Origin: Alphaproteobacteria bacterium
GTDB lineage: Bacteria > Pseudomonadota > Alphaproteobacteria > UBA7887
Direction of reading: 5' to 3'
Assembly (NCBI GenBank): GCA_965216755.1
Contig: CBDCGL010000011.1
Location: 2,880,001 to 2,944,000 of the forward strand
DNA: 64,000 bases
In this document: one piece after another, positions 11,368 to 42,772 of the stretch
Position numbering within the stretch: the stretch's first letter is position 1
Layout: each line of letters opens with the position of its first letter
Notes under the pieces: model-generated
What the model was told of the DNA's origin: nothing
Database searches by the model: none
The model's input: only the letters and a program-made list of their open reading frames with translations
Position numbers and translations under genes: made by a program

Positions 11368-11452
11368 AGATCTGTTGCCTCTTTTGAAGTTCCGACATCA
11401 AATTACGTGATGAGCAAGAGTGCACAACCGGAACCGAAGGGAGAACAGGAAC

Positions 11453-12076: not shown

Positions 12077-12098
12077 TTGCCTGGCAGGGTCGTTTGAC

Positions 12099-12359: not shown

Positions 12360-12412
12360 AGCAGCCATGCCGCGCCAAGGCCAGTCCGGCGCCGACAGAA
12401 GGGGTGTTTGAT

Positions 12413-15914: not shown

Positions 15915-15960
15915 CGCCCAGTATTGTACATGGACCACGAACACCACGCGGGAGGACACG

Positions 15961-17037
15961 ATGAAACGACGTTCCTTCTTGGCCGGCACGGCCGCCGCGA
16001 CCGCCGGAGCGCTCGCCGCACCGGCGATCGCCCAAGGCTTGACCCAATGGAAGATGCTTACCCTGTGGCCACGCGGCTTTCCCGGCCTCGGCACCAGCTC
16101 GGCGCGATTGGCCGCGGCCGTAAACACCATGTCGGACGGTCGCCTGACGATCAAAATCTACAGTGCCGGCGAGCTGGTCCCGGCTTACGAAACTTTCGAC
16201 GCCGTACGCGGAGGCACGGCCGAATGCGCCCATGAGGCGCCCTATATCTGGACCGGCAAACACCCCGCCATGGCCTTTTTCTGTTCGGTACCGGGCGGGC
16301 TCGCGCCGCAAGAACACAATGCCTGGATTTACCATGGCGGCGGCCAAGCCCTATGGGACGAGCTTTATGGCGCCTTTGGTCTGCGATCTTTCCTGGCTGG
16401 CAACAGCAGCGCCAATATGGGTGGCTGGTACCGCAAACCCATCGACAGCGTCGACGACTTTAGGGGCCTCAAAATGCGCATCCCGGGGTTGGGCGCCGAG
16501 GTTTTGACGCGGCTGGGGGCCACCACCGTCAACCTGTCAGGCGGCGAAATCGTGCCGGCGCTGCAAACCGGCACGATCGACGCGGCGGAATGGATCGCGC
16601 CCTATGCCGACCTGGCGTTCGGGTTTCACAAGGTCGCGGACTATTACTATGGACCCGGGGTGCACGAACCGGGCCCCGCCGCCGCGTTCACGGTCAATCT
16701 GGCCGCCTACCAGGCGTTGCCGCCCGACTTGCAGGCGATCTTGCGCCAAGCGGCGGCCGCCGAGGTCGGGCAAATGCATGCCGAGATGCTGGCCGGCAAC
16801 GCCGTGGCCTTGGAAACGCTGATTGCGCGCCATGGGGTCGACGTGCGCCATTTCTCAGACGACATCATTCGCCGTCTGCACCAGGTGTCCGCCGACGTGG
16901 TCGCCGACGTCGCGCAGGAAGATGATCTGGCCCGGCGGATCGGCGCGAATTGGTCCAGTTTCCGCAAAAAAGCCATGGCGTTTGCCCCCTATAGCGGCCA
17001 TGGCTACATCGTCGGACGCGCCTTGGCCACATCGTAA
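15961..17037 (+). CDS. dctP: TRAP transporter substrate-binding protein (TakP/keto-acid-binding subfamily), Tat signal
   Basis: GGAGG RBS; MKRRSFL; GLKMRIPGLG; TIDAAEW; no dctQM nearby. Confidence 0.9.
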   Translation: MKRRSFLAGTAAATAGALAAPAIAQGLTQWKMLTLWPRGFPGLGTSSARLAAAVNTMSDGRLTIKIYSAGELVPAYETFDAVRGGTAECAHEAPYIWTGKHPAMAFFCSVPGGLAPQEHNAWIYHGGGQALWDELYGAFGLRSFLAGNSSANMGGWYRKPIDSVDDFRGLKMRIPGLGAEVLTRLGATTVNLSGGEIVPALQTGTIDAAEWIAPYADLAFGFHKVADYYYGPGVHEPGPAAAFTVNLAAYQALPPDLQAILRQAAAAEVGQMHAEMLAGNAVALETLIARHGVDVRHFSDDIIRRLHQVSADVVADVAQEDDLARRIGANWSSFRKKAMAFAPYSGHGYIVGRALATS

Positions 17038-18920: not shown

Positions 18921-19481
18921 ATGCATCAGATTCGCATTCACGGCCGGGGTGGACAAGGGGTCGTGTCAGCCGCGGAAATGTTGTCGATCGCGGCGTTCGC
19001 AGACGGCGAACATGCCCAGGCCATACCCAGCTTCGGATCGGAACGCATGGGCGCACCGGTGGCCGCGTATGTGCGCATTGACGATCGCGAAATCGAGCTC
19101 CGTGAACCGGTTTTGGAACCGGATATTCTGATCGTCCAAGATCCGACCTTGTTTGCCGCGATCGACGTGTTCGCCGGCTTGCGCGACGACGGCTATGTGC
19201 TCGTCAACAGCATGAAGAGCGCCGAAGAACTGGGCCTGGCCGAAATGGTCGCGAAATTGCCGGCGCGCCATTTCGCCGTGGTGCCCGGGACCAACTTGGC
19301 GATGGAGTTCATCAATCGACCGACGCCGAACACTGTCATGCTCGGCGCCTTTACCGCGCTCACCGATGTGGTCCGCTTGGAGTCGGTGTTTCAGGCTATC
19401 CGGCAGAAATTCCCGGGCGAAATTGGTGAAAGGAATGTGGCGGCGGCGCAAGCCGCGCACGACGCCACGCGTCTTTCATAA
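18921..19481 (+). CDS. 2-oxoacid:acceptor (pyruvate:ferredoxin-type) oxidoreductase gamma subunit
   Basis: IRIHGRGGQGVV, PSFGSERMGAPV, NTVMLGA. Confidence 0.92.
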   Translation: MHQIRIHGRGGQGVVSAAEMLSIAAFADGEHAQAIPSFGSERMGAPVAAYVRIDDREIELREPVLEPDILIVQDPTLFAAIDVFAGLRDDGYVLVNSMKSAEELGLAEMVAKLPARHFAVVPGTNLAMEFINRPTPNTVMLGAFTALTDVVRLESVFQAIRQKFPGEIGERNVAAAQAAHDATRLS

Positions 19482-19509
19482 CCCATGTTGTGCTGAGGAC
19501 GCTGCGTTC

Positions 19510-20766
19510 ATGTTGAAACAAATCGAGGGCGCCCACGCCGTTGCCGAAGCCGTCGCCTGCTGTCGGCCCGAAGTGATCGCGGCGTATCCGATCACGCCGC
19601 AAACACACATCGTCGAGACCCTGGGCACCATGGTGCGCAAGGGTGAGATCGGCCGCTGCGAGTTCCTCAATGTCGAATCCGAATTCGGCGCGATGAGCGT
19701 GTGCATCGGCGCATCGGCCACCGGGGCGCGCACCTATACCGCCACCGCCAGCCAGGGCATGCTGTTCATGATGGAAGCGGTCTACAACGCCTCCGGCATG
19801 GGGCTGCCGATCGTTATGACCGTCGGCAACCGTGCCATCGGTGCGCCGATCAACATTTGGAACGACTGGAGCGATTCGATGGCGGCGCGCGACGCCGGTT
19901 GGATCCAATTGTTCGTGGAAAGTAACCAGCAAGCCGCCGATGTCCATGTGCAGGCGTTTCGCCTGGCCGAAGAAGTGAGTCTGCCGGTAATGGTGTGCAT
20001 GGATGGTTTCATCTTGACCCATGCCTATGAGCGGGTCGACGTGCCGGAACCGGCAGACGTCGATCGTTTTCTGCCGCCGTTCCAGCCGCGCCAAGTGCTT
20101 GACCCGGCGGCGCCGTTGTCGATGGGGGCCATGGTCGGCCCCGAGGCGTTCACCGAGGTCCGCTTTCTCGCCCATTTCAAGCAACTCGAGGCTTTGGCAC
20201 TGATTCCGGAGCATGCCGCCGCCTTCAAAGAGATTTTCGGCCGCGATTCGGGCGGATTGATCAAGAGCCACGACGCCGAAGGGGCGGAGACCGTGGTCAT
20301 TACCATGGGCTCGGTGATCGGCACGATCAAAGAGGTGCTGCGCGACATGCGCGCCGACGGCGTATCCATCGGCGCAGTCACAATTCGCAGTTTTCGCCCG
20401 TTCCCCAGCGCCGCCTTGCGCGCCGCCGTCGCAAACGCCAAACGGGTGATCGTGTTTGAAAAGAGCTTGGCGGTCGGCATTGGCGGCATTCTGGCGACCG
20501 ACGTCCGGACCGCGCTCCACAATCAACCGATCGCCATCCACTCGGCCATCGGCGGCCTTGGCGGTCGGTCGATCACGCGCGAGAATCTGCGCCGTATGTT
20601 CGACAAGGGCGTCAGTGATCAAATGGAAGACCCGCATTTTCACGATGTCCGCATGGATGTCATCCAGCGCCAGTTGGCCCGCGAACGCGACGAGCGGCGG
20701 TCCGGCGCGGCAGCTGAAAACATCCTGCAGGATTTGGGTGTCGTGGCGGCGGCCAAGGCAAACTAG
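19510..20766 (+). CDS. 2-oxoacid:acceptor oxidoreductase alpha subunit
   Basis: AYPITPQTHIVE, VESEFGAM, TATASQG. Confidence 0.93.
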   Translation: MLKQIEGAHAVAEAVACCRPEVIAAYPITPQTHIVETLGTMVRKGEIGRCEFLNVESEFGAMSVCIGASATGARTYTATASQGMLFMMEAVYNASGMGLPIVMTVGNRAIGAPINIWNDWSDSMAARDAGWIQLFVESNQQAADVHVQAFRLAEEVSLPVMVCMDGFILTHAYERVDVPEPADVDRFLPPFQPRQVLDPAAPLSMGAMVGPEAFTEVRFLAHFKQLEALALIPEHAAAFKEIFGRDSGGLIKSHDAEGAETVVITMGSVIGTIKEVLRDMRADGVSIGAVTIRSFRPFPSAALRAAVANAKRVIVFEKSLAVGIGGILATDVRTALHNQPIAIHSAIGGLGGRSITRENLRRMFDKGVSDQMEDPHFHDVRMDVIQRQLARERDERRSGAAAENILQDLGVVAAAKAN

Positions 20767-20781
20767 CAAGGCGTGGCACCA

Positions 20782-21801
20782 ATGGCGCATCACCCGGAAA
20801 GCACGCAAAAAATCAAATTTTACCAAACCGGAACGTTCACGGTTGGCAACCGGTTGCTGATCTCTCAGCATCGGGCGGTGCAAGCCAGCCGCGACCGGTC
20901 GAACTCGCTCGACTCCGGGCACCGGGCATGTCAGGGCTGCGGCGAGGCGCTGGGGGCGCGCTATGCCATCGATGCGGCCATGCGCGCAACCGACAACCAA
21001 CTGATCGCGGTCAACGCCACCGGTTGTTTGGAAGTGTTCACGACACCCTATCCGGAAACCGCTTGGTCGGTGCCGTGGATCCATTCCTTGTTCGGCAACG
21101 CCGCGGCGGTCGGCGCCGGCGTCGCGGCCGCGCTGCGGGCGAAGGGCCGCACCGAGACCCGGGTCGTCGCACAAGGCGGGGACGGCGGCACTTTTGATAT
21201 TGGCATGGGCTGCCTTTCCGGCATGTTCGACCGCAACGATGACGTGCTTTATATTTGTTACAATAATGAAGCTTACATGAACACGGGCGTGCAGCGATCA
21301 AGCGCCACGCCTGGCGGTGCGCGCACCAACACGACCATGCCGGTCGGCCAGGAACCGGGTAACCCATTCCATTCCGGCAAGAGCGTGCCGCTGATTGCCA
21401 TGGCACATAATATACCGTATGTCGCGACGGCATCGGTCCATGACCTTCACGACCTGGAGCATAAGGTCGAAAAAGCGATGGCGATTCATGGTGCCCGATA
21501 CGTCGAAGTGTTTGTGCCATGCCCGTTGGGCTGGGGATCGCAACCGGCCGAGACCATCCATATCGCCCGCTTGGCCGTGGAGACTGGTATCTATCCTTTG
21601 TTCGAAGCGGAGCATGGCGAGGTGACCCATGTTACGAAAATCCGATCACGGCAACCGGTGGCAGCCTACCTGAAACCGCAACGTCGATTCGCGCATGTTT
21701 TCAAGCCAGAAAATGCCGACGAATTGGCGGCGCTGCAAGCCATCGCCGACGCCAACATGCGCAAATTCGGCCTCCTGCCGTCTGAGGACTCGGCGCCATG
21801 A
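20782..21801 (+). CDS. 2-oxoacid:acceptor oxidoreductase beta subunit (TPP-binding)
   Basis: HRACQGCG, ATGCLEV, GGDG...YNNEAYMNTG, PCP. Confidence 0.93.
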   Translation: MAHHPESTQKIKFYQTGTFTVGNRLLISQHRAVQASRDRSNSLDSGHRACQGCGEALGARYAIDAAMRATDNQLIAVNATGCLEVFTTPYPETAWSVPWIHSLFGNAAAVGAGVAAALRAKGRTETRVVAQGGDGGTFDIGMGCLSGMFDRNDDVLYICYNNEAYMNTGVQRSSATPGGARTNTTMPVGQEPGNPFHSGKSVPLIAMAHNIPYVATASVHDLHDLEHKVEKAMAIHGARYVEVFVPCPLGWGSQPAETIHIARLAVETGIYPLFEAEHGEVTHVTKIRSRQPVAAYLKPQRRFAHVFKPENADELAALQAIADANMRKFGLLPSEDSAP

Positions 21802-23453
21802 CGACGGAGAACCGGCCGCAATCTGCGTCGAAACCGTTCGCTATCACCCTTGATGCCGGATCGAGCTTGCTCAACAAAACCGGTAGCTGGCGCACGGAGC
21901 GGCCGGTCTATGTGGATCGCCTGCCGCCGTGCAATCACGCTTGCCCCGCCGGTGAGAATATCCAAGCCTGGCTTTTTCATGCCGAGGAGGGTGATTATCT
22001 GGGCGCGTGGCAAGAAATCATGCGCAACAACCCACTGCCCGCGATCATGGGTCGCGCTTGCTACCATCCCTGCCAAACCGCCTGCAACCGTGTCCAGCTT
22101 GATAGCGCGGTCAATATCCACGCTGTTGAACGTTTTCTGGGTGATCTAGCGATTGAATCGGGTTGGTCGGTCACGGCCGACGGCGCCCCCAGCGGCAAGC
22201 AAGTGCTGGTCATAGGGGCCGGCCCGAGTGGGCTATCGGCCGCCTATCACCTGGCCCGCGCCGGCCATACAGTGACAATTCGCGAAGCCGGGCCGGTGGC
22301 CGGTGGCATGATGCGCTTCGGCATTCCCAAATATCGCTTGCCACGCGACATCGTCGACGCCGAAGTCGCGCGCATAGTGGCGCTCGGTGTCACGTTGAGC
22401 TTGAACGACAAAGTCGACGATATTCCGGCCGCCATGTCCGAGGGCGGCTTTGATGCCTGTTTCGTCGCCATTGGCGCCCATCTCGCCAAACGCGTCGATA
22501 TCCCAACCCCGGACGCGGGGCGGATCTTGGATGCCGCCACCGTGTTGCGCCAGATCGAAACCGGCGATGCACCGCCGCAGCTCGGCCGCCGCGTGGTGGT
22601 CTATGGCGGCGGCAATACCGCCATGGACATGGCGCGCACCGCCAAACGACTGGGCGCCGACGAAACGGTGATCGTCTATCGCCGCACCCGCGCCCAAATG
22701 CCCGCTCATGATTTCGAGGTCGACGAGGCGATCGAGGAAGGCGTGGTGATGAATTGGCTGACCACCATTAAAGAAGCGGGCGACGAAGGCTTTGTGGTCG
22801 AAAAGATGGCGCTTGACGATGATGGCTGGCCGCAGCCGACCGGCGAGTTTGAAACTATCGAAGCCGATACTTTGGTGCTGGCGCTGGGGCAGAACGTCGA
22901 TACCACGATTCTGCGGAATTTGCCCGGCGTGACCATCGACGACGGTGTCGTTCAGGTTGGCCCCGACATGATGACCGGCTATGCGGGCGTGTTTGCCGGC
23001 GGCGACATGGTCCCGTCGGAGCGCACGGTCACGGTCGCGGTCGGCCACGGCAAAAAGGCGGCCCGCCATATCGATGCCTATTTGCGTGGAACGCGCCACG
23101 CGCCACCACCAAAGCACGAGCTGGTCGGTTTCGAACAGCTCAATCCCTGGTACTACTCCGATGCCGCCGCGACCGAACAGCCGATGCTTGATGCCATCCG
23201 CCGGCAAACCACGTTCGAAGAGGTTCAGGGCGGACTCACGGAACGTAACGCGTTGTTCGAAGCCCGTCGTTGCCTGTCGTGCGGCAATTGCTTTGAATGT
23301 GACAATTGCTATGGCATGTGCCCAGACAACGCCATTACCAAGCTCGGCCCCGGCAAGCGCTTTGCGTTCAAATACGATTTCTGCAAGGGCTGTGGAATCT
23401 GTGCCGTCGAATGCCCTTGCGGCGCGATTAAGATGGTACCGGAAGACATCTAA
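21798..23453 (+). CDS. GltD/NfnB-like FAD/NAD(P) oxidoreductase with PFOR-delta-like N-terminus and C-terminal 2x[4Fe-4S] ferredoxin
   Basis: KTGSWRTERP, PCNHACPAG, GRACYHPCQTACNR, IGAGPSG, GGGNTAMD, CFECDNCYGMCP, CKGCGICAVECP. Confidence 0.9.
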   Translation: MTTENRPQSASKPFAITLDAGSSLLNKTGSWRTERPVYVDRLPPCNHACPAGENIQAWLFHAEEGDYLGAWQEIMRNNPLPAIMGRACYHPCQTACNRVQLDSAVNIHAVERFLGDLAIESGWSVTADGAPSGKQVLVIGAGPSGLSAAYHLARAGHTVTIREAGPVAGGMMRFGIPKYRLPRDIVDAEVARIVALGVTLSLNDKVDDIPAAMSEGGFDACFVAIGAHLAKRVDIPTPDAGRILDAATVLRQIETGDAPPQLGRRVVVYGGGNTAMDMARTAKRLGADETVIVYRRTRAQMPAHDFEVDEAIEEGVVMNWLTTIKEAGDEGFVVEKMALDDDGWPQPTGEFETIEADTLVLALGQNVDTTILRNLPGVTIDDGVVQVGPDMMTGYAGVFAGGDMVPSERTVTVAVGHGKKAARHIDAYLRGTRHAPPPKHELVGFEQLNPWYYSDAAATEQPMLDAIRRQTTFEEVQGGLTERNALFEARRCLSCGNCFECDNCYGMCPDNAITKLGPGKRFAFKYDFCKGCGICAVECPCGAIKMVPEDI

Positions 23454-23474
23454 GCGCGCGTACTGCGAAAGGAA

Positions 23475-24191
23475 GTGAAAGTGTCGCCGTCTTTGAACGA
23501 TATTGAAAGCGCGATCCGTGCCGCAGGCTTGACCCCGCGCGGCGCGTTCTATCCCACGGCCGATGACCAAGTACCCGATTTGGCCGACGACCAACCCGCG
23601 CGCACTGTGATCCTGGTTGGCAATGCCGGACCCGCGATGTGGCAAGCCTTTTCGGCGGCGCCCCAATCCGCGCAACATCCGCTCGATCAGTGGTGCGACA
23701 CCGTCATTTCCGATCTGGCGATCGATCTCGGTGCCGAGGCTCTGTTTCCCTTTACGCGCCCGCCGATGCCGTTTCAGCGCTGGGCACGTCGTGCCGAGCC
23801 ATGCTATTCGTCGCCGCTCGGCATTTTGGTTCATCCGCGCCATGGTCTGTGGCACGCATATCGTGGCGCCTTGGCGTTTGCCGCCATTATAGACGTACCG
23901 CAGCCGCGCACGGCCGAGAACCCATGCCACAGTTGCGCTGACAAGCCATGCCTCGACACCTGCCCCGTCGACGCGTTTGATGGAAATGGGTATGACGTGC
24001 CGGCATGTGTCGCCCACGTCGAAACCCGCGCCGGCGCCGATTGTATGACCTATGGCTGCCGGGCCCGGCGCGCTTGTCCGGTCGGCCGAGAGTCGGTTTA
24101 TGACCCGGCCCAAGCCGCGTTTCACATGCGCGCTTTTTTGCGCGCCCGCCAGGCGGCGCGGCGCGCCGAGAATACGGCCAAAGGCGCCTAA
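23475..24191 (+). CDS. CblC/QueG-fold protein with C-terminal [4Fe-4S] cysteine clusters
   Basis: LVGNAGPAMW, VHPRHGLWHAYRGAL, CHSCADKPCLDTCPV, C..C...CRARRACPVG. Confidence 0.7.
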   Translation: MKVSPSLNDIESAIRAAGLTPRGAFYPTADDQVPDLADDQPARTVILVGNAGPAMWQAFSAAPQSAQHPLDQWCDTVISDLAIDLGAEALFPFTRPPMPFQRWARRAEPCYSSPLGILVHPRHGLWHAYRGALAFAAIIDVPQPRTAENPCHSCADKPCLDTCPVDAFDGNGYDVPACVAHVETRAGADCMTYGCRARRACPVGRESVYDPAQAAFHMRAFLRARQAARRAENTAKGA

Positions 24192-24311
24192 CCTGCGTTA
24201 ATGCCTTGTTCGGCGAATCGGCAGTTCTTAAGTGTGGCATAGACCGTTTGGGCGGATCGACAACGCGCTGGCGTAACGGGTCCGAGGTGACGACTAACGG
24301 GGATCGCGGCG

Positions 24312-24950
24312 ATGTCTGTCGATGATATCTACGATGCAGTGTTGGCCTATGACGAAGAGCGGGTCGCCGACCTGGTCAAGGCGGAGCTTGACGCGGGTAC
24401 CGCAGTGAAGGAAATCCTCGACAGCGGCATGGTCGCCGCGCTCGACGATATCGGCGAACAATTCAGCGATGGCACGTTGTTCGTGCCCGAAATGCTGATG
24501 GCCGCCGAAGCCGTGCAAGCCGGGATGGATCTGCTACGCCCGATTCTGGCCCGCACCGGTGCCAAACCGATCGGCACGGTCGTGATCGGCACTGCCAAGG
24601 GCGACCTGCACGACATTGGCAAGAATCTCGTCGGCATGCTGCTTGAGGGCGCCGGCTTCCGGGTGATCGACCTCGGAACCGATGTTGACGTCGAAGACTT
24701 CATAACGACCGCCCAAGGGAACGAGGCGGACATCATTGCCGTATCCGGCTTGTTGACGACCTCGATGGCGGAAATGGAACGCGCCGCGGCAGCCATCCTT
24801 GACGCCAATCGGACGCGCAATTTGAACGTCAAGGTCATGGTCGGTGGGCCGCCGGTGAACAATGACTTCGCAACGCGGATTGGCGCTCATGGCTATGGCG
24901 ACGATGCGCCTGCCGCCGTCGATATGGCAAGGTCTTTGGTTGAGACATAA
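24312..24950 (+). CDS. Corrinoid (B12-binding) protein of a methyltransferase system
   Basis: Cap domain FVPEMLMAA; GDLHDIGKNLV (DxHxxG); SGLLTT; VMVGG. Confidence 0.95.
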   Translation: MSVDDIYDAVLAYDEERVADLVKAELDAGTAVKEILDSGMVAALDDIGEQFSDGTLFVPEMLMAAEAVQAGMDLLRPILARTGAKPIGTVVIGTAKGDLHDIGKNLVGMLLEGAGFRVIDLGTDVDVEDFITTAQGNEADIIAVSGLLTTSMAEMERAAAAILDANRTRNLNVKVMVGGPPVNNDFATRIGAHGYGDDAPAAVDMARSLVET

Positions 24951-24990
24951 AGCGCGCTGAGGTGAGCATGGCGCCACAAGGAATGCGATC

Positions 24991-26148
24991 ATGAGCTGGA
25001 CACATCGGGAACGACTGCTGGCCGCCCTCAATCACGAACAACCCGATCGAGTACCGATCGATTTCGGCAGCGCCGGGCCGACCAGCATCACATTGGATGC
25101 GTACGAAAATCTAAAGGGATTGCTGGGCGTCAGCGCCGAAACCGCGGTGATGTCAAAAATGGCGTCGGTGGCGTGGCCGGATGAATCGATCTTGCAACGC
25201 TTTGCGGTCGACACGCGCGGGGTGCAGCCGGCAGGCTATGGTGGTGGCCGCGAAAAAAATATCGACGAGAACACATTCCTCGACGCGTTCGGCGTCACAT
25301 GGAAACGGACGATCGGCACCGAGGACGTCCATTTCCTGCACGTCGACGGGCCTTTTCACGGCGGCAAGCCTTCGATCGATGCGGTCGAGGCCTTTGACTG
25401 GCCCGATCCCGACAACCCGACGCTGATGGACGGTGTGCGTGAACGCGTGGCGGAAATCAAAGGCTATGGCCAGAACCACGCGCTGGTCCTGCATTTGCCG
25501 GGCGGAGTCATTCACCGCGGCTACGCCATGCGCGGATTTGAGCCTTATCTGAAAGATCTGTACAAGAACCGCGAATTCGTGACCCGGCTTATGGATAAGC
25601 TTGCGGATTTCTGGGTTGGTGTGGCGGAAAATATGATGCGCGCCGTCGGCCCCGAGAATGTCGATGTCGCGTTTTTCGGCGAAGATCTCGGCACCCAAGA
25701 CGGCTGCATGTTCGACCCGGCCATGTATGCGGAACTGATCAAGCCGCGTCACCGGCGGATGGTCGAAACCATCAAAAGCCAGACAGACGCAAAGGTCTGT
25801 TTTCACTGCTGTGGGTCTGCCTACCATTTCATCGACCATTTGATTGATATCGGCGTCGACGCACTGAACCCGGTCCAGGTCAGCGCCAAGGACATGGAGC
25901 CCGAGCGGCTCAAAGAAGCGTTCGGCGACCGTATCGCGTTTTGGGGTGGCATCAACTCGCAGCGGATTCTGCCTTACGGCACACCGGAAGACGTGCGTGC
26001 GGAAACGCAGCATATTATTGACACTCTCGGCGCCGGTGGCGGCTATGTGCTCAACAGCGTTCATAATATCCAGCCGGAAGTGCCACCGGAGAACGTCGTC
26101 GCCATGTTTGATGCCGGCCGCGATCACACTTATCAGCGGGCCGCATGA
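24991..26148 (+). CDS. UroD/MtaA-CmuA family corrinoid methyltransferase (copy 1)
   Basis: RERLLAALNHEQPDRVPID, GEDLGTQ, FHCCG, DALNPVQ, FWGGI, LNSVHNIQ. Confidence 0.85.
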   Translation: MSWTHRERLLAALNHEQPDRVPIDFGSAGPTSITLDAYENLKGLLGVSAETAVMSKMASVAWPDESILQRFAVDTRGVQPAGYGGGREKNIDENTFLDAFGVTWKRTIGTEDVHFLHVDGPFHGGKPSIDAVEAFDWPDPDNPTLMDGVRERVAEIKGYGQNHALVLHLPGGVIHRGYAMRGFEPYLKDLYKNREFVTRLMDKLADFWVGVAENMMRAVGPENVDVAFFGEDLGTQDGCMFDPAMYAELIKPRHRRMVETIKSQTDAKVCFHCCGSAYHFIDHLIDIGVDALNPVQVSAKDMEPERLKEAFGDRIAFWGGINSQRILPYGTPEDVRAETQHIIDTLGAGGGYVLNSVHNIQPEVPPENVVAMFDAGRDHTYQRAA

Positions 26149-26768
26149 CAACGGACAACGGCGGCCCCCGGCCGCGCACGTTGCTGATCAGCTGCGGTGC
26201 TTTGGCCCGCGAAATTGTCATTCTGGTGCGCGAGAACAGGTGGGACAATATGCGGGTACAGTGTCTGCCCGCCCATTTGCACAACACACCGGAGAAGATT
26301 CCGGATTTGGTGCGCGGCCTGATTCAGCAAGCTCGCAAAAACTATGACCAGGTTCTGGTGCTGTACGGCGATTGTGGTACCGGCGGCAAGCTGGATGCGG
26401 TGCTCGATGAAGAACGAGTTGAGCGAATCTATGGCACCCATTGCTACGAGGCCTACGCGGGCCAACACGCGTACGAAGCGTTGATGCGCGCTGAGCCCGG
26501 CAGCTTTTTTTTAACCGATTTTCTCGCGCGCCATTTCGAGCGCCTGATCGTGCGGGGCATGGCGCTGGATCGCTTTCCGAAGCTGCGCGATGTTTACTTC
26601 GGCAACTATAAGAAGGTGGTCTATCTGGCCCAGACAGACGATGAGGCACTGACGGAAAAGGCGCAAGCGGCCGCCGCGACCCTGGACCTCGCATTTGAGC
26701 GGCGCTTCACGGGCCTTGGCGACTATGAGAGGTTCCTTACCGCACGCCAAAACCATGCACCCGATTGA
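26145..26768 (+). CDS. DUF1638 family protein
   Basis: LISCGALARE, LPAHLHN, YGDCGTGG, HCYE, FFLTDFL, YFGNY. Confidence 0.88.
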   Translation: MTTDNGGPRPRTLLISCGALAREIVILVRENRWDNMRVQCLPAHLHNTPEKIPDLVRGLIQQARKNYDQVLVLYGDCGTGGKLDAVLDEERVERIYGTHCYEAYAGQHAYEALMRAEPGSFFLTDFLARHFERLIVRGMALDRFPKLRDVYFGNYKKVVYLAQTDDEALTEKAQAAAATLDLAFERRFTGLGDYERFLTARQNHAPD

Positions 26769-26811
26769 CAGGATGGCGACACCGGAACGCGCGCAAACGG
26801 GCCCCTAGCAA

Positions 26812-28797
26812 ATGCCGAAGATGGACCGAGCCTCCGATGACGCCTTGATCGTCTTCACGCCTTCGGGCCGGCGGGGTCGTTTTCCGGTCGGCACCGGCGT
26901 GCTGGACGCGGCGCGCGGGCTCGGTGTTGACATCGATTCGGTATGTGGCGGGCGCGGCCTGTGTGGTCACTGCCAGATCGCGGTCAGCGCTGGTGCCTTT
27001 CCGAAATTCGGATTGACGTCGGCCGCGGAACACCTGTCGCCCAAGGGCGACGTCGAAACGACGTTCGCGGATAGAAACGGGCTAGCCCCTGAACGGCGCT
27101 TGGCATGCGTTGCGGCGGCACTTGCCGATGTTGTGATCGACGTGCCGCAGGAAAGCCAAGTCCATAAGCAGGTGGTGCGCAAGCGGGCCGAAGCGCGCGC
27201 GATCGACATCGACCCCGTGATGCGTCTGCACTTTGTTACGCTGAAACCGCCGCGCCTCGACGACCAGGCGAGCGACAGGGCGCGGCTGGAAAACGCGCTC
27301 GCGGCAGACTGGGGGCTGACCGACCTTGATTGGGACCTCTCGGCCCTACACGCCCTATCTGCCGCTTTGCGTGAGGACAACTGGCAAGCGACCGTCTTGG
27401 TGCGCAACAGCCGGCAGGTCGTCGGTGTGTTGCCGGGGCTTCGTGACCGGCTGTTCGGTCTGGCGATCGATGTCGGCACGACCACCATCGCCGTTCATTT
27501 GTGCGATCTGGCTTCCGGTAGCGTCGAAGCGGCGATCGGCGCCATGAACCCGCAAATCCGGTTCGGCGAAGATGTGATGAGCCGGATCTCGTTTGTTCAG
27601 CTCAATCCGGATCAAGCAGCCGCGCCGACATCGATCGTGCGCGACGCCATCAATCAGCTCGCTAAACAAGCGGCGACGGCCGCCGGCGTTACGCCGGCGG
27701 ATATCGTCGAAGCGACCTTTGTTGGCAACCCGACCATGCATCACTTGCTGTTGGGGCTCAATCCGTTGCAGCTGGGCAGCGTGCCGTTTCCGTTGGTGAC
27801 CGATTCGGCGGTGACGGTGTCTGCGCATGCTCTCGATCTGGATCTTCATCCGGGCGCGCGCTGCTATGTGCTGCCCTGCATCGCTGGCCATGTAGGCGCC
27901 GATACCGCCGGTGTCATCCTGTCCGAGGCACCGCACCAATCGGATGCGTTGATGCTGACTGTCGATATCGGCACCAATGCGGAAATCGTGTTGGGCGACA
28001 AACGCGGCCTGGTCGCCTGTTCCTGTCCGACCGGGCCGGCTTTCGAAGGCGCGCAAATCAGTTGCGGACAAAGGGCCGCACCCGGCGCCATCGAACGCGT
28101 ACGGATTGATCGTGACACGCTGGTGCCGCGCTTCAAGGTCATTGGCTGCGACTTGTGGTCCGACGACCCGGCGTTCGCCGAGGCGGTCGCGACGCTTGGC
28201 GTCACCGGCATCTGTGGCTCCGGCATAGTCGAAGCCGTCGCCGAGATGGTTCTGGCCGGCATTGTCGCGCCGAGCGGCCTGGTCGACGGTCGGGGGCGGC
28301 AAGATCACCCGCACATCGTCCCGACCGGCCGCAGCTTCGCCTATCGCCTGCACGACGGCCCGCCGGCAATGCTGATCACCCAGCATGACGTGCGCGCCAT
28401 CCAGCTCGCCAAAGCCGCCCTGCAGGCCAGCATTCGCCTGCTGATGGAGCAGATCGGCGCGACGGTGGTCGACCGCATCGTGCTGACCGGCGCATTCGGC
28501 ACCTATATCGATCCGTTCCACGCCATGGTGCTGGGAATGATCCCTGAGTGCGATCCGACGCGGGTTGATGCAGCTGGCAACGCAGCCGGCACCGGTGCCC
28601 GCATCGCGCTGCTCAATCGCGCGGCACGCGGCGAGATCGAAACCCTGGCCCGGGCGGTGGAAAAAGTCGAAACCGCCGCCGCGCCACAATTTCAGGACTA
28701 TTTCGTGGCCGCCATGGCCTTTGCCCCAACGGTCGTGGCGGTGGAACGCGACAATGCAGGCGCGGAATCGCCGGCGCCAGCATCCATGAGGACGTAA
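26812..28797 (+). CDS. ASKHA-domain ATP-dependent reductive activator of corrinoid proteins (RamA/RACo, DUF4445) with N-terminal [2Fe-2S]
   Basis: CGGRGLCGHC...RLAC; AIDVGTTT; FGEDVMSR; DIGTNAE; GPAFEG; GICGSG; GNAAG. Confidence 0.93.
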   Translation: MPKMDRASDDALIVFTPSGRRGRFPVGTGVLDAARGLGVDIDSVCGGRGLCGHCQIAVSAGAFPKFGLTSAAEHLSPKGDVETTFADRNGLAPERRLACVAAALADVVIDVPQESQVHKQVVRKRAEARAIDIDPVMRLHFVTLKPPRLDDQASDRARLENALAADWGLTDLDWDLSALHALSAALREDNWQATVLVRNSRQVVGVLPGLRDRLFGLAIDVGTTTIAVHLCDLASGSVEAAIGAMNPQIRFGEDVMSRISFVQLNPDQAAAPTSIVRDAINQLAKQAATAAGVTPADIVEATFVGNPTMHHLLLGLNPLQLGSVPFPLVTDSAVTVSAHALDLDLHPGARCYVLPCIAGHVGADTAGVILSEAPHQSDALMLTVDIGTNAEIVLGDKRGLVACSCPTGPAFEGAQISCGQRAAPGAIERVRIDRDTLVPRFKVIGCDLWSDDPAFAEAVATLGVTGICGSGIVEAVAEMVLAGIVAPSGLVDGRGRQDHPHIVPTGRSFAYRLHDGPPAMLITQHDVRAIQLAKAALQASIRLLMEQIGATVVDRIVLTGAFGTYIDPFHAMVLGMIPECDPTRVDAAGNAAGTGARIALLNRAARGEIETLARAVEKVETAAAPQFQDYFVAAMAFAPTVVAVERDNAGAESPAPASMRT

Positions 28798-28800
28798 GCG

Positions 28801-29940
28801 ATGACGACGATTACCGGCAAGGACCGCGTGCTTGCCGCCCTGGATCACCAGCAAGCCGATCGGATCCCCATCGACTTTGGCGGCACCTATGCGACGACGA
28901 TCTATTACACCGCCTACGAACGTCTCAAAAAAATACTCAACCTAGACCACGAAACCGTAATCCTGTCCAAGATCAGACGGTTGGCGATTCCAGACGAGTC
29001 AATCCTCGATCGCTTTGATGTCGATACACGTTACTTGGCGCTGGGTGTCTACGAAGGCGATCAAAAGGATCTCGACCAAGACACGTATTTGGACGAGTGG
29101 GGCACGACGTGGCGGACCACCGGCGACGGCCATTATCTGTACGTTGACGGCCCGTTCTTCGGCACCAAACGGCCCCATATCGAAGAATTGGACAACCATG
29201 ACTGGCCTGATCCTGACAATCCCGGCTATTGCCGCGGGCTGGCCGATCGCGCAGCCGCGCTGCGGGCACGCAGCGACAGCGCGATCATCCTCAACCTGCC
29301 ACCAGGGATCGTCCACCAAACCCAGTTCGTGCGCGGCTTCGCCGATTCCCTGAAAGACCTTTATCGCAACCGCGACTTCGCCGCGCGCCTGATGACCATA
29401 ATCGCCGACCTTTGGATCCGCATTGCCGAAAACGCCCTTGAGGCGGTGGGCAACAATGTCGACATCGTGTTTTTCGGCGATGACTTAGCGACACAGCAAG
29501 CCCCGTTATTTAGCCCGGACATATATCGCGAGCTGATTAAACCCCATCATCGGCGCATGGTCGCGGCGCTAAAGGCGCATGATGTGGCGGTCATTTATCA
29601 CAGTTGCGGTGCGGTCTCGTCGCTCATCCAGGACTTAATCGACATTGACATCGATGCCATCAATCCGGTTCAAGTCGGCGCCAAACATATGGATCCAGGG
29701 GCGTTGAAGGACGCTTTCGGCGATCGGGTGACTTTTTGGGGCGGCATCGATACCCAAGGCGTGTTGCCGTTCGGCAGCACGAACGACGTCCGTGCCGAGG
29801 TCGATCGCATGATCGATTGCCTGGGTGCCGGCGGCGGTTACGTGCTCAACAGTGTCCACAACATCCAAGACGACGTGCCGGCCGAGAACATTGTCGCGAT
29901 GTTCGACGAAGCCCGCACATATCGCCCTCGTTGGGCGTGA
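28801..29940 (+). CDS. UroD/MtaA-CmuA family corrinoid methyltransferase (copy 2)
   Basis: DRVLAALDHQQADRIPIDFGG, GDDLATQ, YHSCG, FWGGIDTQ, LNSVHNIQ; clear paralog of 24991-26148. Confidence 0.85.
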   Translation: MTTITGKDRVLAALDHQQADRIPIDFGGTYATTIYYTAYERLKKILNLDHETVILSKIRRLAIPDESILDRFDVDTRYLALGVYEGDQKDLDQDTYLDEWGTTWRTTGDGHYLYVDGPFFGTKRPHIEELDNHDWPDPDNPGYCRGLADRAAALRARSDSAIILNLPPGIVHQTQFVRGFADSLKDLYRNRDFAARLMTIIADLWIRIAENALEAVGNNVDIVFFGDDLATQQAPLFSPDIYRELIKPHHRRMVAALKAHDVAVIYHSCGAVSSLIQDLIDIDIDAINPVQVGAKHMDPGALKDAFGDRVTFWGGIDTQGVLPFGSTNDVRAEVDRMIDCLGAGGGYVLNSVHNIQDDVPAENIVAMFDEARTYRPRWA

Positions 29941-29970
29941 CCGGCAACGGTCGCTGCGAGAGAGGTGGAC

Positions 29971-30984
29971 ATGACGAATTGCTTGCAGGCCTTATTGGCA
30001 ACCAAGTCGGTGATCATCGCCGACGGCGCCATGGGCACCAGTCTTATGGCGTTGGGGTTCGATTCGCGCGGCGCGACCGAGCTGTGGAACCGTGACCATC
30101 CCGACCAGGTCCGCGCGGTACACGCCGAGTTTCTGGCCGCCGGATCCGATATTATCCTCACCAACAGTTTTGGTGCTAATCGTATGCGCCTCGGGTCGCA
30201 TGGCGCCGCCGATCAAGTTGCGGCCTTGAATGGTGCGGCCGCGGCCCTGGCGCGCGAAGCCGCAGACATATCGGATCGGCCCGTTTTGGTCGCCGGGTCA
30301 ATCGGGCCGACGGGAAAGTTGCCCCGGCCTTACGGCCCCCTCTCCGACGAGGAGGCCTACGATGTTTTCACCGAGCAAGCGGCGGCCCTGGTTGCGGGCG
30401 GCGTCGACCTCCTCTGGCTGGAAACCTTCGCTGCTATCGAGGAGCTGGGGGCCGCGCTCGCCGCAGCGGCGCAAACCGGCATGCCGGTGGTCGCCACCAT
30501 GACATTTGACACCCATGGCCGCACCATGATGGGGGTTACACCGGCAAAGGCACGGCACGCAATCCACGACCAACCCGCGCCGCCAGCCGCGTTTGGCGCC
30601 AATTGCGGTATCGGTCCGGCACCACTTGTCGATAGCCTGCTGGGATTGGCCGCCGCCTCCGGTCCCGACGATGCGATCGTCGCCAAAAGCAACTGCGGCG
30701 TCCCCACCTATCGCGATGGCACGGTCGTCTATGACGGTACGCCGGCAGTCATGGGCCGGTATGCCTGCCTGGCCCGCGATGCCGGAGCGCGCGTGATCGG
30801 GGGGTGCTGTGGCACTACGCCAGAACATATTCAGGCAATGGTTGACGCGTTGGCGGCGGAGCCACGCGCGGCAGCGCCGGACCGCGCCAAGATCGAAATG
30901 GAACTCGGCCCACTGCCGGCGCCGCCGGCCACCGCCCGGCGCGCGCGGGGCGCCCGGCACCGACGCTCGACAAGCGGCTCCTGA
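29971..30984 (+). CDS. bmt: Homocysteine S-methyltransferase domain protein (Bmt / split methionine synthase Hcy-binding subunit)
   Basis: DGAMGT, TNSFGAN, GSIGPTG, GRTMMG, GANCG and GGCCGT (Zn ligands intact). Confidence 0.88.
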   Translation: MTNCLQALLATKSVIIADGAMGTSLMALGFDSRGATELWNRDHPDQVRAVHAEFLAAGSDIILTNSFGANRMRLGSHGAADQVAALNGAAAALAREAADISDRPVLVAGSIGPTGKLPRPYGPLSDEEAYDVFTEQAAALVAGGVDLLWLETFAAIEELGAALAAAAQTGMPVVATMTFDTHGRTMMGVTPAKARHAIHDQPAPPAAFGANCGIGPAPLVDSLLGLAAASGPDDAIVAKSNCGVPTYRDGTVVYDGTPAVMGRYACLARDAGARVIGGCCGTTPEHIQAMVDALAAEPRAAAPDRAKIEMELGPLPAPPATARRARGARHRRSTSGS

Positions 30985-38686: not shown

Positions 38687-40345
38687 CTAAGACGCGACGC
38701 GGGCACGATCGATAATTTCGTCGTAGGCGAGGCCGGCGGGCAAACTGCCATAGCTGCGCCCCCAATCGCCGGCCAGCCGTGACGCCAAGAAACCCTCGGC
38801 CACCGCGCTCGGCGCATGTTGCACAAGTAGCGCGCCTTGCAGGGTGAGGGCCATCATTTCGGTCAACCGACGCGCCCGGACTTCGCGCTCGCCCGGCAAA
38901 TCGAGCGCGTTTTTGAGCTGGTCGGCGGCGGCATCGAGCCGCGGATCGGTCCCCCGCGCGGCGTCGATTTCAGCCAAGAACGCCGCCAATGAACTTGGTT
39001 CGCGGCTCATGGCACGCAAGACATCCAGACAAATCACATTGCCTGAGCCTTCCCAGATGCTGTTGACGGGTGCTTCGCGATAAAGCCGCGGCAGCATTGA
39101 GTCTTCAACATAGCCGCCACCCCCAAGACATTCCATCGCTTCATAAACATGGTTCGGCAAGCGTTTGTTGACCCAATATTTGGCGACCGCGACGGCAATC
39201 CGTGCAAATAGCGTCTGATCGGGGTCGCGGGTGGCCTCGTCATAGCCGCGCGCCACGCGCATGGTCAGCATTGTGGCCGCTTCGGATTCGATCACAAGAT
39301 CGGCCAAAACGTTACGCATGAGCGGATGCTGGGTCAGGCGGCGCTGGAACGTGGTGCGATGATCGGCGTGATGGACGGCTTGGACGGTGGCCTGGCGCAT
39401 CATGCCGGCCGGCGCGACGGCCGTATCCAAGCGGGTGTGTTGCACCATGTCCATGATGGTTGCGATGCCGCGCCCCTCCTCGCCGATCAGGCGCGCCCAG
39501 GTGCCGTCATATTCGATCTCGGCGGATGCATTCGATCGGTTGCCAAGCTTATCCTTGAGCCGCTGAATCAGAAACGGGTTGCGGCTGCCATCGGGCTGCC
39601 AGCGCGGCACCAAGAAACACGACGGCCCTTTGTCGGTGACCGCCAACGTTAGAAACGCGTCCGACATGGGCGCCGAACAAAACCATTTATGGCCGCGCAG
39701 CGCATAGGCGCCATTGGCGCCAAGCGCTTCCGCCCGCGTGGTATTGGTCCGCACGTCCGAGCCACCTTGTTTTTCGGTCATTGCCATGCCGATCGTGGCG
39801 CCCGCTTTTTCCGCCGCCGGCACACAGGCCGGGTCATAGTGGCTCGACAGTGCGCGGGGTTCCCAAACGGCGGCAACGTTCGGTTGGTGACGCAATGCCG
39901 CAACCGAAGCATAAGTCATGGTGATCGGGCAGCACACGCCCGCTTCCACCTGGGTCAGCAGATATTCCAGCGACGCGTGGGCGACATGGCCGCCGGGTCG
40001 GTCCGCCGTCCAGCCAAGCGCGTGGACTTCGTGGTTGATGGCCAACGCCATGAGTTCGTGGTAGGCGGGGTGAAACACAACCTCGTCAATGCGCTGTCCA
40101 AAGCGATCAAAAGCTCTCAGTTCCGGTGGCTGGCGATTGGCGGTCGCGCCGAGCTCAAGCACGTGCTCGGTCGCCAGCAGCGCGCCAAATCGGCGCAGGC
40201 GGTCGACGGCCCAACCTGCGCCTTCGCGCTTGACCGCCTCGACCAATGCTGGATCGCGATCAAACAAATTATAGTCCGCCAGGATCGGCGGCTGGTTGGT
40301 CACCTCGTGGGTGGCGAGTTCGGTGCGCGGGGCGCGCGGCGCCAT
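38687..40345 (-). CDS. aidB: AidB-like acyl-CoA dehydrogenase
   Basis: THEVTNQPP, CPITMT, MTEKQGGSDVR, GHKWFCSAP, PVNSIWEGSGN. Confidence 0.9.
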   Translation of the reverse strand: MAPRAPRTELATHEVTNQPPILADYNLFDRDPALVEAVKREGAGWAVDRLRRFGALLATEHVLELGATANRQPPELRAFDRFGQRIDEVVFHPAYHELMALAINHEVHALGWTADRPGGHVAHASLEYLLTQVEAGVCCPITMTYASVAALRHQPNVAAVWEPRALSSHYDPACVPAAEKAGATIGMAMTEKQGGSDVRTNTTRAEALGANGAYALRGHKWFCSAPMSDAFLTLAVTDKGPSCFLVPRWQPDGSRNPFLIQRLKDKLGNRSNASAEIEYDGTWARLIGEEGRGIATIMDMVQHTRLDTAVAPAGMMRQATVQAVHHADHRTTFQRRLTQHPLMRNVLADLVIESEAATMLTMRVARGYDEATRDPDQTLFARIAVAVAKYWVNKRLPNHVYEAMECLGGGGYVEDSMLPRLYREAPVNSIWEGSGNVICLDVLRAMSREPSSLAAFLAEIDAARGTDPRLDAAADQLKNALDLPGEREVRARRLTEMMALTLQGALLVQHAPSAVAEGFLASRLAGDWGRSYGSLPAGLAYDEIIDRARVAS

Positions 40346-40348
40346 GGA

Positions 40349-42769: not shown

Positions 42770-42772
42770 GGC

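Follow-up and report, generated by a model that had tools for sequence, protein, structure and literature searches.

A candidate corrinoid-dependent methyl-transfer gene cluster with two UroD-fold proteins in a marine-type alphaproteobacterium

We analyzed a 64-kb stretch of contig CBDCGL010000011.1 (hereafter the window, to which positions refer unless a locus is named; G+C content about 62%). Its host is a marine-type alphaproteobacterium with a vitamin B12 methyl-transfer gene cluster, and the nearest homologs of the window proteins come from metagenome-assembled genomes (MAGs) of Rhodospirillaceae and Thalassospiraceae. Six core open reading frames (ORFs), all on the + strand (24312–30984), encode a corrinoid carrier protein, two paralogous proteins of the UroD superfamily (UroD1 and UroD2), a DUF1638 protein, a RACo/RamA-type reductive activator, and a homocysteine methyltransferase of the Bmt/MtgE type. 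The cluster probably represents a corrinoid-dependent methyl-transfer system in which UroD1 and UroD2 load the corrinoid protein from methyl donors. Corrinoid three-component methyltransferases are a known kind of system; new are the clade of the candidate loading enzymes, their unusual putative metal site, a conserved accessory protein, and the direct wiring to homocysteine.

In the proposed mechanism, UroD1 and UroD2 would each take a methyl group from a small-molecule donor and transfer it to Co(I) of the adjacent corrinoid protein, thus acting as donor:corrinoid methyltransferases (MT1); UroD2, as the second such enzyme, would serve a different donor or a different methyl group. The Bmt/MtgE-type protein would serve as the second methyltransferase (MT2), moving the methyl group from the corrinoid protein to homocysteine and giving methionine. 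Inactive Co(II) would be re-reduced by RACo at the expense of ATP, the DUF1638 protein and an upstream iron–sulfur protein of CblC/QueG fold would serve the loading or repair of the cofactor, and an upstream 2-oxoacid oxidoreductase may deliver low-potential electrons. The data show which genes are present and to which families they belong, that their order is conserved, that a natural fusion exists, and that a predicted complex passes its controls; which way the methyl groups move, that UroD1 and UroD2 are MT1 enzymes, what the accessory genes do, and what serves as donor are inferred.

The six genes follow each other at distances of 40, −4, 43, 3, and 24 bp: the UroD1 and DUF1638 genes overlap by 4 bp, the UroD2 gene starts 3 bp after that of RACo, and the Bmt-type gene 24 bp after that of UroD2 (Table 1). 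An earlier note on this DNA had described six tightly spaced, co-oriented genes for a corrinoid protein, two UroD-like proteins, DUF1638, RACo, and a Bmt-like protein, with neither an MttB-type nor a pterin-binding gene in the cluster. Positions and strand were recovered unchanged, the gene identities were supported by Pfam and NCBIfam models, and the absence extends to the entire window: no pterin-binding, MTHFR, DUF5981, or MtaA-like gene was found in it by tblastn and by Pfam search of 50 ORFs, and no MttB-type gene by Pfam search of these ORFs, every unscanned gap being smaller than the roughly 1.4 kb of an MttB gene.

UroD1 and UroD2 are 53% identical to each other and, judging from sequence models and a predicted structure, belong to the UroD superfamily (PF01208 fold) with a TIM barrel like that of UroD and MtaA. 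The URO-D Pfam model covered their C-terminal halves only (residues 176–378 of UroD1). With the hemE model TIGR01464, UroD1 and UroD2 scored 30.3 and 28.7 bits against an equivalog cut-off of 302.95; HemE identity was rejected on this wide miss, in agreement with the earlier note, which had read both proteins as methyltransferases. Its label "UroD/MtaA family" is a loose one: the MtaA/CmuA family model TIGR01463 gave 67.4 and 67.0 bits (cut-off 235.4), the MtaA model 59 and 47 bits (cut-off 400), and the MtbA model 33 and 44 bits (cut-off 600) for UroD1 and UroD2, respectively, and the His-Cys-Cys site is replaced by His-Cys-His. MtaA/CmuA was still the nearest curated family by score. The best sequence matches in the PDB were HemE (E 7.9e-9) and Methanosarcina mazei MtaA (E about 1e-6). 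With an alignment of 97 rows as input, AlphaFold (AF2) modeled UroD1 at a pLDDT of 96.2; its closest folds were MtaA (4ay8/4ay7; E 4e-16, TM 0.65–0.68) and then HemE, with MetE far behind. Over the MtaA and HemE structures matched, E ranged from 1e-12 to 4e-16 and TM from 0.63 to 0.69, and identity to M. mazei MtaA over the structural alignment was 17–18%.

In a profile alignment, His272 and Cys274 corresponded to the H-x-C of M. mazei MtaA, and His358 to a Cys of that protein which we take to be its third zinc ligand. The His272/Cys274/His358 pattern was present in 40 of 40 proteobacterial rows; in the 48 rows of other phyla, position 274 was Cys in 36 and Asp in 12. The His-x-Cys...His site of UroD1 and UroD2 is a putative metal site.

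Relatives of the UroD-like proteins are numerous. A word-index search retrieved 3,203 proteins at E ≤ 1e-10, the best being 76% identical, and an exhaustive profile search of 50%-identity representatives found 15,342 proteins at E ≤ 1e-3, 7,848 at E ≤ 1e-10, and 1,895 at E ≤ 1e-30. In a scan of a genome collection, at least 593 stretches matched and 431 encoded relatives; the best 80 were kept and gave 77 loci, 23 proteobacterial (many of them short contigs) and 54 others. Genes in these loci were called by a simple rule based on ORFs and G+C content at third codon positions, so that genes may be missed or mis-started. A quick IQ-TREE of 97 rows left the root and the deeper branching order unresolved. 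The proteobacterial clade (40 rows, SH-aLRT 100) comprised a UroD1 orthogroup of 21 rows (SH-aLRT 100) and a second group of 19 rows (support 88), which held UroD2, its orthologs, and ten tandem paralogs of locus L015; UroD2 itself grouped with orthologs of L014, L009, L011, L018, and L020. By this tree, UroD1 and UroD2 represent two conserved ortholog lines in the proteobacterial clade. A further UroD2 ortholog (L007, 10336–11490) was left out of the tree; it contains an in-frame stop and is a pseudogene or an assembly error.

The gene order is conserved as well. In L014, the order 238-residue protein, corrinoid protein, UroD1, DUF1638, RACo, UroD2, Bmt recurs at 63–72% identity, and parts of it were seen in many loci of marine alphaproteobacterial MAGs; because of this recurrence the arrangement is not due to chance. 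In 17 of the 21 UroD1 orthologs, window included, the gene of the corrinoid protein precedes UroD1 by no more than 102 bp. Two of the other four have just 681 and 256 bp of upstream sequence (L004 and L023, respectively); L005 and one L012 copy truly lack it. In 11 of the 21, UroD1 is followed by a DUF1638 gene within 122 bp, and UroD2 in relatives comes after a pterin-binding gene, MTHFR, or RACo. By tblastn, the 23 proteobacterial loci contained the corrinoid protein in 15 cases, DUF1638 in 12, the 238-residue protein and a GntR regulator in nine each, RACo in eight, the pterin-binding gene, MTHFR, and DUF5981 in seven each, PhyH in six, TRAP DctP/DctM in five, PanB and an MtaA-like third UroD type in four each, and an RraA-like gene in three.

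The usual layout was corrinoid protein, UroD1, DUF1638, DUF5981, MTHFR, pterin methyltransferase, and UroD2, with RACo and the 238-residue gene nearby. As read from the gene content, this is the classical architecture of MT1, carrier, MT2, and activator, feeding tetrahydrofolate (THF). In the window and its closest relative, L014, a Bmt/MtgE-type gene replaces the in-cluster folate branch; since the usual layout of the relatives feeds THF, the homocysteine wiring of the window is a variant.

The family is also expanded. Locus L015 (1988–14086) carries ten tandem UroD-like paralogs, 49–58% identical to UroD1/UroD2, followed by DUF1638 and DUF5981, and the same MAG holds further UroD-like copies (L017, 1448–2584, and L021, 6184–7305). 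An apparent UroD–DUF1638 fusion in L015 (12308–14086) was rejected, as its translation shows a stop codon between the genes. A third, near-canonical MtaA-like UroD type was found in the same clusters as UroD1 (L001, 5107–6285; L003, 7104–8162; L009, 12910–13941, − strand). It scored 206–210 bits with TIGR01463 and 231–242 bits with PRK06252 (cut-off 244) and kept the H-x-C...C motif; therefore, the thiol-methyltransferase type is present there as a distinct gene. Homologs of coenzyme M (CoM) methyltransferases were unexpected in marine alphaproteobacterial MAGs.

The corrinoid protein has the PF02607 cap, the PF02310 domain, and the D-x-H-x-x-G motif that define the corrinoid subunit of split methionine synthase; D98-x-H100-x-x-G103, S145-x-L147, and G178-G179 were invariant in 29 rows. 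Its scores were below every NCBIfam equivalog cut-off, the MtgC models giving 175 bits against 370 (MtgC_2) and 157 against 310; therefore, it may not be a housekeeping MtgC. Its link to the UroD clade is supported by a natural fusion protein from the representatives search (P0216, 648 residues), in which a UroD-like domain, 36% identical to UroD1 over its full length and keeping H-S-C-G and V-H-N-I-Q, is joined to a B12-binding_2/B12-binding part 43% identical to the corrinoid protein of the window. A search for fused forms of 675–2000 residues found none, which is weak evidence. In another representative (P0147, 447 residues), a fragment of DUF1638 (E 6.5e-5) may be attached to a UroD-like part, though this could be an artefact of gene calling.

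Structure prediction of the complex of the corrinoid protein with UroD1 gave a median ipSAE of 0.66 in three runs, and the best of three controls gave 0.00. Of 157 solved complexes, 116 reach this mark, as do 2 of 215 mismatched pairs; these counts hold only roughly here because custom alignments were supplied. The runs agreed in at least 89% of contacts, with a partner pLDDT of at least 90. The predicted interface involves the conserved segments 183–192 and 235–245 of UroD1, including clade-invariant Lys188, Asp189, and Gln236, and the cap loop 54–66 of the corrinoid protein together with residues adjoining its D-x-H-x-x-G motif. This prediction supports binding between UroD1 and the corrinoid protein. 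Gene adjacency, the natural fusion, and the predicted complex thus bear out the earlier idea that the UroD-like proteins work with the corrinoid protein. Corrinoid dependence is well supported for the subclade of the window but not for the family as a whole: since distant homologs mostly have no corrinoid protein nearby, the wider family need not be corrinoid-dependent. Outside the proteobacterial clade, five of the loci with a corrinoid protein near the homolog (L045, L048, L050, L053, L057) were among the eight loci of the nearest clades.

UroD1 and UroD2 probably function as MT1 rather than MT2, as far as sequence and gene context tell. This role is favored because relatives with the carrier, the folate methyltransferase, MTHFR, and the activator show no other donor-side enzyme, because tandem duplication has enlarged the family (to ten copies in L015, with others in L017 and L021), because transporters and GntR regulators are frequent neighbors, and because L001, L003, and L009 carry a separate MtaA-like gene with H-x-C...C. 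Tandem expansion was reported for the donor-specific MttB-type genes of roseobacters (PMC12478193). The MT1 role claimed in the earlier note is therefore the best fit, UroD-like proteins being the only candidate donor-side enzymes in relatives with the complete set, with the reservation that the direction of transfer is not readable from sequence.

Apart from this reservation, several observations weigh against the loading role. Among solved structures, the closest is that of MtaA, which is an MT2 and not an MT1, and the chloromethane MT1 CdmB (PDB 9rui) matched UroD1 only at E 0.98 and was absent from the profile matches of the UroD clade at E ≤ 0.01. His-Cys-His fits neither of the patterns described for UroD-fold enzymes, namely His-Cys-Cys as found among S-methyltransferases and a carboxylate or non-ligand replacement in O-demethylases (bioRxiv 10.1101/2023.07.31.551370). 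Each of the two conserved ortholog lines might have a function of its own. The 120 close homologs listed all had generic names or none, and the Bmt type occurred in 1 of the 23 proteobacterial loci (L014), L001 holding a more distant S-methyl_trans gene. The pass of the predicted complex may partly be owed to likeness to known corrinoid-protein complexes. Finally, a corrinoid protein was near the homolog in 10 of the 54 loci outside the proteobacterial clade, and beyond this clade and its sister clades homologs at 35–47% identity were mostly located among sugar and sugar-acid genes without a nearby corrinoid protein. Such distant homologs may differ in function. Their sugar context was seen in L026, L032, L038, L039, L055, L063, L064, L068, L072, and L076 (around position 10000), from Armatimonadota, Chloroflexota, Planctomycetota, Myxococcota, Acidobacteriota, and Lentisphaerota, with GFO_IDH_MocA, SDR, DHDPS, FAA hydrolase, GH5, RhaT, and Amidohydro_2 genes as neighbors.

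Alternatively, UroD1, UroD2, or both could be MT2-type enzymes like MtaA, transferring the methyl group of CH3-Co(III)-corrinoid to an acceptor such as a thiol, with loading from methyl-THF by a pterin-binding methyltransferase, which relatives have in the cluster and which this genome would encode elsewhere; in a mixed form, one paralog would load and the other unload the corrinoid protein. Both among solved folds and, by score, among curated families, MtaA comes closest, all of the 40 rows retain the H-x-C portion of the zinc motif that activates thiols, two distinct ortholog lines would suit two jobs, and the methyl-THF:corrinoid methyltransferase and MTHFR of the relatives could run in the loading direction. 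However, the tenfold expansion and the TRAP and GntR neighbors are more in keeping with uptake and breakdown of a range of donors than with a range of acceptors, the site has His as its third residue and not the Cys of thiol methyltransferases, and the true MtaA-like His-Cys-Cys gene already present in L001, L003, and L009 makes more MT2s less needed. The run in the window would, moreover, hold three unloading enzymes and no loader, and we regard an MT2-type function as rather unlikely. A plain split B12-dependent methionine synthase with its pterin subunit encoded elsewhere, in which the UroD-like genes are passengers coding for decarboxylases or sugar-acid enzymes, is very improbable. It conflicts with the adjacency of corrinoid protein and UroD1 in 17 of 21 orthologs, the fusion of a UroD-like with a corrinoid domain, the predicted complex, the 4-bp overlap of UroD1 and DUF1638, the 3 bp between RACo and UroD2, and the 175 bits against 370 of the corrinoid protein, maybe not a housekeeping MtgC. 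In its favor are the sugar-gene context of distant homologs without corrinoid protein, the four non-UroD genes, which equal the parts list of Phaeobacter inhibens and Ruegeria pomeroyi (PMC5764234; PMC12478193), and the pterin-binding gene of P. inhibens, which is unlinked too (PMC5764234).

The folate-independent route proposed in the earlier note was not borne out. The pterin-binding genes of the relatives pass NF005719 (methyl-THF:corrinoid methyltransferase) with 348 bits against 259, and in 7 of the 23 loci orthologous UroD1, UroD2, corrinoid-protein, and DUF1638 genes adjoin such a methyltransferase and MTHFR. In L003, L006, L007, L011, and L013 the cluster also holds the set of DUF5981, MTHFR, and methyl-THF:corrinoid methyltransferase; therefore, the UroD-like proteins are the only candidate donor-side enzymes there. 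For the split methionine synthase of P. inhibens, the gene of the pterin-binding subunit stands away from those of the corrinoid, homocysteine, and DUF1638 proteins (Price et al., PMC5764234), and methionine synthesis and catabolic demethylation can both draw on a single corrinoid hub (Mausz et al., PMC12478193). The corrinoid protein of the window may well be shared with a methyl-THF methyltransferase whose gene lies in another part of the genome. A self-contained route, in which donor methyl groups go to homocysteine only and no methyl-THF methyltransferase takes part, appears unlikely to us. It draws on the absence of pterin-binding, MTHFR, and DUF5981 genes from the window, on the Bmt-type gene next to UroD2, and on L014, which shares this layout and has none of those genes in its 21 kb. 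Against it stand the folate-wired orthologous modules, the precedent of an unlinked pterin subunit (PMC5764234), and the corrinoid protein, which is 72–74% identical to its counterparts in loci with the pterin-binding methyltransferase and MTHFR; the absence itself is established for 64 kb of a 4,853,305-bp contig.

Table 1. Genes of the co-oriented run in the window, with the evidence for each assignment
Feature	Position	Strand	Evidence
PorA-like alpha subunit of a 2-oxoacid:ferredoxin oxidoreductase	19366..20766	+	POR_N + PFOR_II; NF040682 441 bits, cut-off 550 missed
PorB-like beta subunit, binding thiamine pyrophosphate (TPP)	20773..21801	+	TPP_enzyme_C; NF008819 340 bits, cut-off 405 missed
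Fusion of a GltD-like, NAD(P)-binding flavoprotein with a delta domain of PorD type, 2x[4Fe-4S]	21798..23453	+	Pyr_redox_2, Fer4_20, Fer4_7
Conserved 238-residue protein, CblC(MMACHC)/QueG/reductive-dehalogenase-type fold	23475..24191	+	Predicted structure, eight invariant Cys
Corrinoid (B12) carrier protein, 212 residues, methyl hub	24312..24950	+	B12-binding_2 + B12-binding
UroD1, 385 residues, proposed substrate:corrinoid methyltransferase (MT1)	24991..26148	+	URO-D, E 1.9e-30
DUF1638 protein, 207 residues	26145..26768	+	PF07796, E 3.8e-31
RACo/RamA-type ATP-dependent reductive activator, 661 residues	26812..28797	+	Fer2 + RACo_linker + Raco_middle + RACo_C_ter
UroD2, 379 residues, UroD1 paralog, proposed second MT1	28801..29940	+	URO-D, E 4.6e-29
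Homocysteine S-methyltransferase, Bmt/MtgE type, 339 residues	29965..30984	+	S-methyl_trans (PF02574), E 3.5e-68; NF005718 421 bits, above cut-off 338

The co-oriented run begins further upstream than first noted, at 19366. The PorA-like and PorB-like genes are 6 bp apart, and the GltD–PorD gene overlaps that of PorB by 4 bp, and 21 bp separate its end from the gene of the 238-residue protein, which in turn ends 120 bp before the corrinoid-protein gene. Orthologs of this protein (45–59% identity) were located just upstream of the corrinoid protein in the nine proteobacterial loci that contain it, and it belongs to the module, which thus extends upstream. No Pfam or NCBIfam family matched its sequence, and matches to MMACHC at the sequence level were not significant (PF16690, E 0.04–0.24; MMACHC in the PDB, E about 0.12). 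Eight Cys residues (151, 154, 159, 163, 178, 190, 195, and 201) are invariant and form the clusters C-x2-C-x4-C-x3-C-P and C-x11-C-x4-C-x5-C-P, two [4Fe-4S]-like motifs; the Atlas label was 'ferredoxin family protein' (0.98). The matches listed by Foldseek in the PDB for its AF2 model (pLDDT 84.7) were all MMACHC/CblC, QueG, or PceA, with E from 1.9e-4 to 1.7e-2 and TM from 0.44 to 0.52, seven of them at E ≤ 0.001. The protein is therefore predicted to have a cobalamin-binding, nitroreductase-like core fold with two Fe-S motifs, and may take part in processing, reduction, or loading of the cofactor or in electron relay.

DUF1638 is required for the split methionine synthase of P. inhibens to be active, as established by genetics (PMC5764234). 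The N-terminal domain of the RACo/RamA-type protein is a [2Fe-2S] ferredoxin, and the AcsV model scored 366 bits, below its cut-off of 800. The GltD–PorD fusion passed NF009410 (762 bits, cut-off 516), with PorD models covering residues 492–549; a gamma subunit was not seen beside PorA, PorB, and GltD–PorD (19366–23453). In L014, an aldehyde:ferredoxin oxidoreductase (6438–8429) takes the place of the Por genes, and genes for PorA/B or for that enzyme were found near homologs in a few other phyla too. That this position is taken by either of two ferredoxin-reducing enzymes hints at an electron supply for RACo, as a lead only, and the 2-oxoacid oxidoreductase possibly belongs to the module. In an RNA scan of the window, tRNA alone reached the gathering score and no B12 riboswitch was found; the numbers of promoter-like sites (5 against 3.7 expected) and terminator-like sites (19 against 13.8 expected) were uninformative.

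By analogy with known UroD-fold MT1 enzymes, and from the transporters and regulators that neighbor the cluster in relatives, the likeliest donor is a carboxylate bearing a methyl group on S or O. The substrates of UroD-fold loaders described so far are aryl methyl ethers, methyl thioethers, and methyl halides (PMC13222342; bioRxiv 10.1101/2023.07.31.551370), and CdmB has no metal (PMC13222342). The retained metal-type site suggests heteroatom activation rather than halide chemistry, CdmB being metal-free, and the TRAP transporters point to carboxylates. As a rough inference, S-methyl carboxylates such as methylmercaptopropionate or dimethylsulfoniopropionate (DMSP) are a possible donor class, methoxylated aromatic or aliphatic acids a more doubtful one, and donors of any other class taken together are slightly more probable than the first of these, at a chance still short of even.

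The neighboring genes of the relatives (RraA-like aldolase, PhyH, PanB, acyl-CoA dehydrogenase, haloacid dehalogenase, TRAP) provide leads, to methoxy-aromatic acids, S-methyl carboxylates, or halogenated acids, none of them decisive. Acyl-CoA dehydrogenases were neighbors in 4 of the 23 loci; their best model matches were acryloyl-CoA reductase (361 bits against 640) and 3-sulfinopropanoyl-CoA desulfinase (291 against 600). A haloacid dehalogenase of type II is encoded between RACo and UroD2 in L003 (16341–17030; TIGR01428, 202 bits against 125), a HAD hydrolase in L001 (14930–15778), and a fluoroacetyl-CoA thioesterase-like protein in L022 (4340–4789); these neighbors may hint at halogenated substrates. 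A cassette of a PhyH-family dioxygenase, TRAP DctPQM, a GntR/FCD regulator, and PanB recurs beside the methyltransferase cluster in L003, L008, L009, and L016, the PanB of L016 being bona fide (TIGR00222 passed).

A much more specific reading takes 19366–30984 as a self-sufficient methyl-salvage machine, in which two His-Cys-His enzymes would demethylate marine methylated-sulfur carboxylates and pass the methyl groups via the corrinoid protein straight to homocysteine without folate, while a 2-oxoacid (in L014, aldehyde) ferredoxin oxidoreductase and the CblC-like Fe-S protein would make up a dedicated line supplying RACo with electrons and cofactor. We consider it decidedly unlikely. Under it, one possibility would be two successive steps, from DMSP to methylmercaptopropionate and on to 3-mercaptopropionate; to our knowledge, the enzyme of the second step has never been identified in non-methanogens.

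Elsewhere in the window, a copper-handling cluster (8215–13123, + strand) encodes a multicopper oxidase, two CusF-domain proteins, and PCuAC, with a two-component system upstream of it (5928–8122, − strand). A large block for fatty-acid beta-oxidation (38687–51254, − strand) comprises genes for three acyl-CoA dehydrogenases, one of them AidB-like, together with a 3-hydroxyacyl-CoA dehydrogenase/enoyl-CoA hydratase, an alpha/beta hydrolase, and a thiolase. A TRAP DctP-type solute-binding protein (15763–17037, + strand) is solitary, DctQ and DctM not being found in the window.

If UroD1 and UroD2 load the corrinoid protein, hubs of this kind would have a second class of loaders, different in structure from the first. 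The importance of B12-dependent demethylation through free-standing corrinoid proteins for bacteria of the oxic ocean is a recent finding, made with MttB-fold loaders for glycine betaine only (PMC12478193). No description of UroD-fold loaders on MtgC/MtgE-type systems was found in the open-access literature searched, including PMC12478193 and a December 2025 preprint (10.64898/2025.12.19.695462). The family amounts to 1,895 clusters at 50% identity and E ≤ 1e-30 and expands up to tenfold in single MAGs; by record titles, it is common in marine Rhodospirillales-type MAGs and in those from oxygen-minimum zones. Its donors, once found, would add a route of methyl turnover and perhaps of the turnover of sulfur or lignin-derived carbon, and marine cobalamin demand would gain a further source via UroD-type loaders. 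In the variant wired to homocysteine, methyl groups scavenged by the cell would feed straight into the synthesis of methionine, and the CblC-like Fe-S protein and DUF1638 offer handles on how bacteria load or repair B12 carrier proteins.

Among known systems, CmuA/CmuB of Methylobacterium and Hyphomicrobium resemble the window proteins in combining, in Alphaproteobacteria, a UroD-fold methyltransferase with a corrinoid domain. CmuA has the methyltransferase domain followed by the corrinoid domain, the order also seen in P0216, and its site is H-x-C...C. The proteins of the window differ from it in being unfused, in the third site residue, which is His here, and in scoring 67 bits against 235 with the MtaA/CmuA model. 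MtsA and MtpA of Methanosarcina, methyltransferases for methylthiol and methylmercaptopropionate, are alike as UroD-fold enzymes moving a thioether methyl group onto a corrinoid; they are members of the MtaA family with CoM as the final acceptor. Their thioether chemistry makes S-methyl carboxylates a plausible donor class.

The O-demethylase and chloromethane systems of anaerobes (OdmABCD, MtvABC, MtoABCD, CdmBCA; PMC13222342) share with the cluster an MT1 of the UroD superfamily (in the window, a proposed role), a corrinoid protein, and a RACo-type activator, and with L003, L006, L007, L011, and L013 also a pterin-binding MT2. They differ in their hosts, acetogens and archaea instead of marine proteobacteria, and in their MT2, which in the window is a homocysteine and not a THF methyltransferase. 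Similarity to CdmB, the sole member compared, was not significant (E 0.98), and CdmB has no metal site (PMC13222342), in contrast to the putative one here.

The Type 1 mlp clusters of Kountz and Balskus (bioRxiv 10.1101/2023.07.31.551370) have a layout that is found in the window too, and the link to methionine and sulfur metabolism proposed for them is a further likeness. Mlps, however, are described there as more than 25% identical to CoM methyltransferases, as having His-Cys-Cys, and as occurring in strict anaerobes only, mostly Firmicutes. The window has 17–18% identity to MtaA and His-Cys-His, and, in addition, the homocysteine methyltransferase, DUF1638, and the CblC-like gene; membership in Type 1 mlp clusters was rejected on identity and site.

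The closest counterpart is the MtgBCDE/split methionine synthase system of R. pomeroyi and P. inhibens (PMC12478193; PMC5764234), which likewise has a free-standing corrinoid hub, a homocysteine methyltransferase of the Bmt/MtgE type (the role of MtgE being that given in PMC12478193), RamA/RACo, and DUF1638. It also belongs to marine Alphaproteobacteria and uses exchangeable, donor-specific loaders on one hub (PMC12478193). The corrinoid protein of the window is below the MtgC cut-offs, MtgD is absent from the window, and an extra gene of CblC/QueG fold lies upstream. The words uroporphyrinogen, UroD, and MtaA were not found in the main text of PMC12478193; the loaders there are of MttB fold (PF06253), whereas the candidate loaders of the window are of UroD fold.

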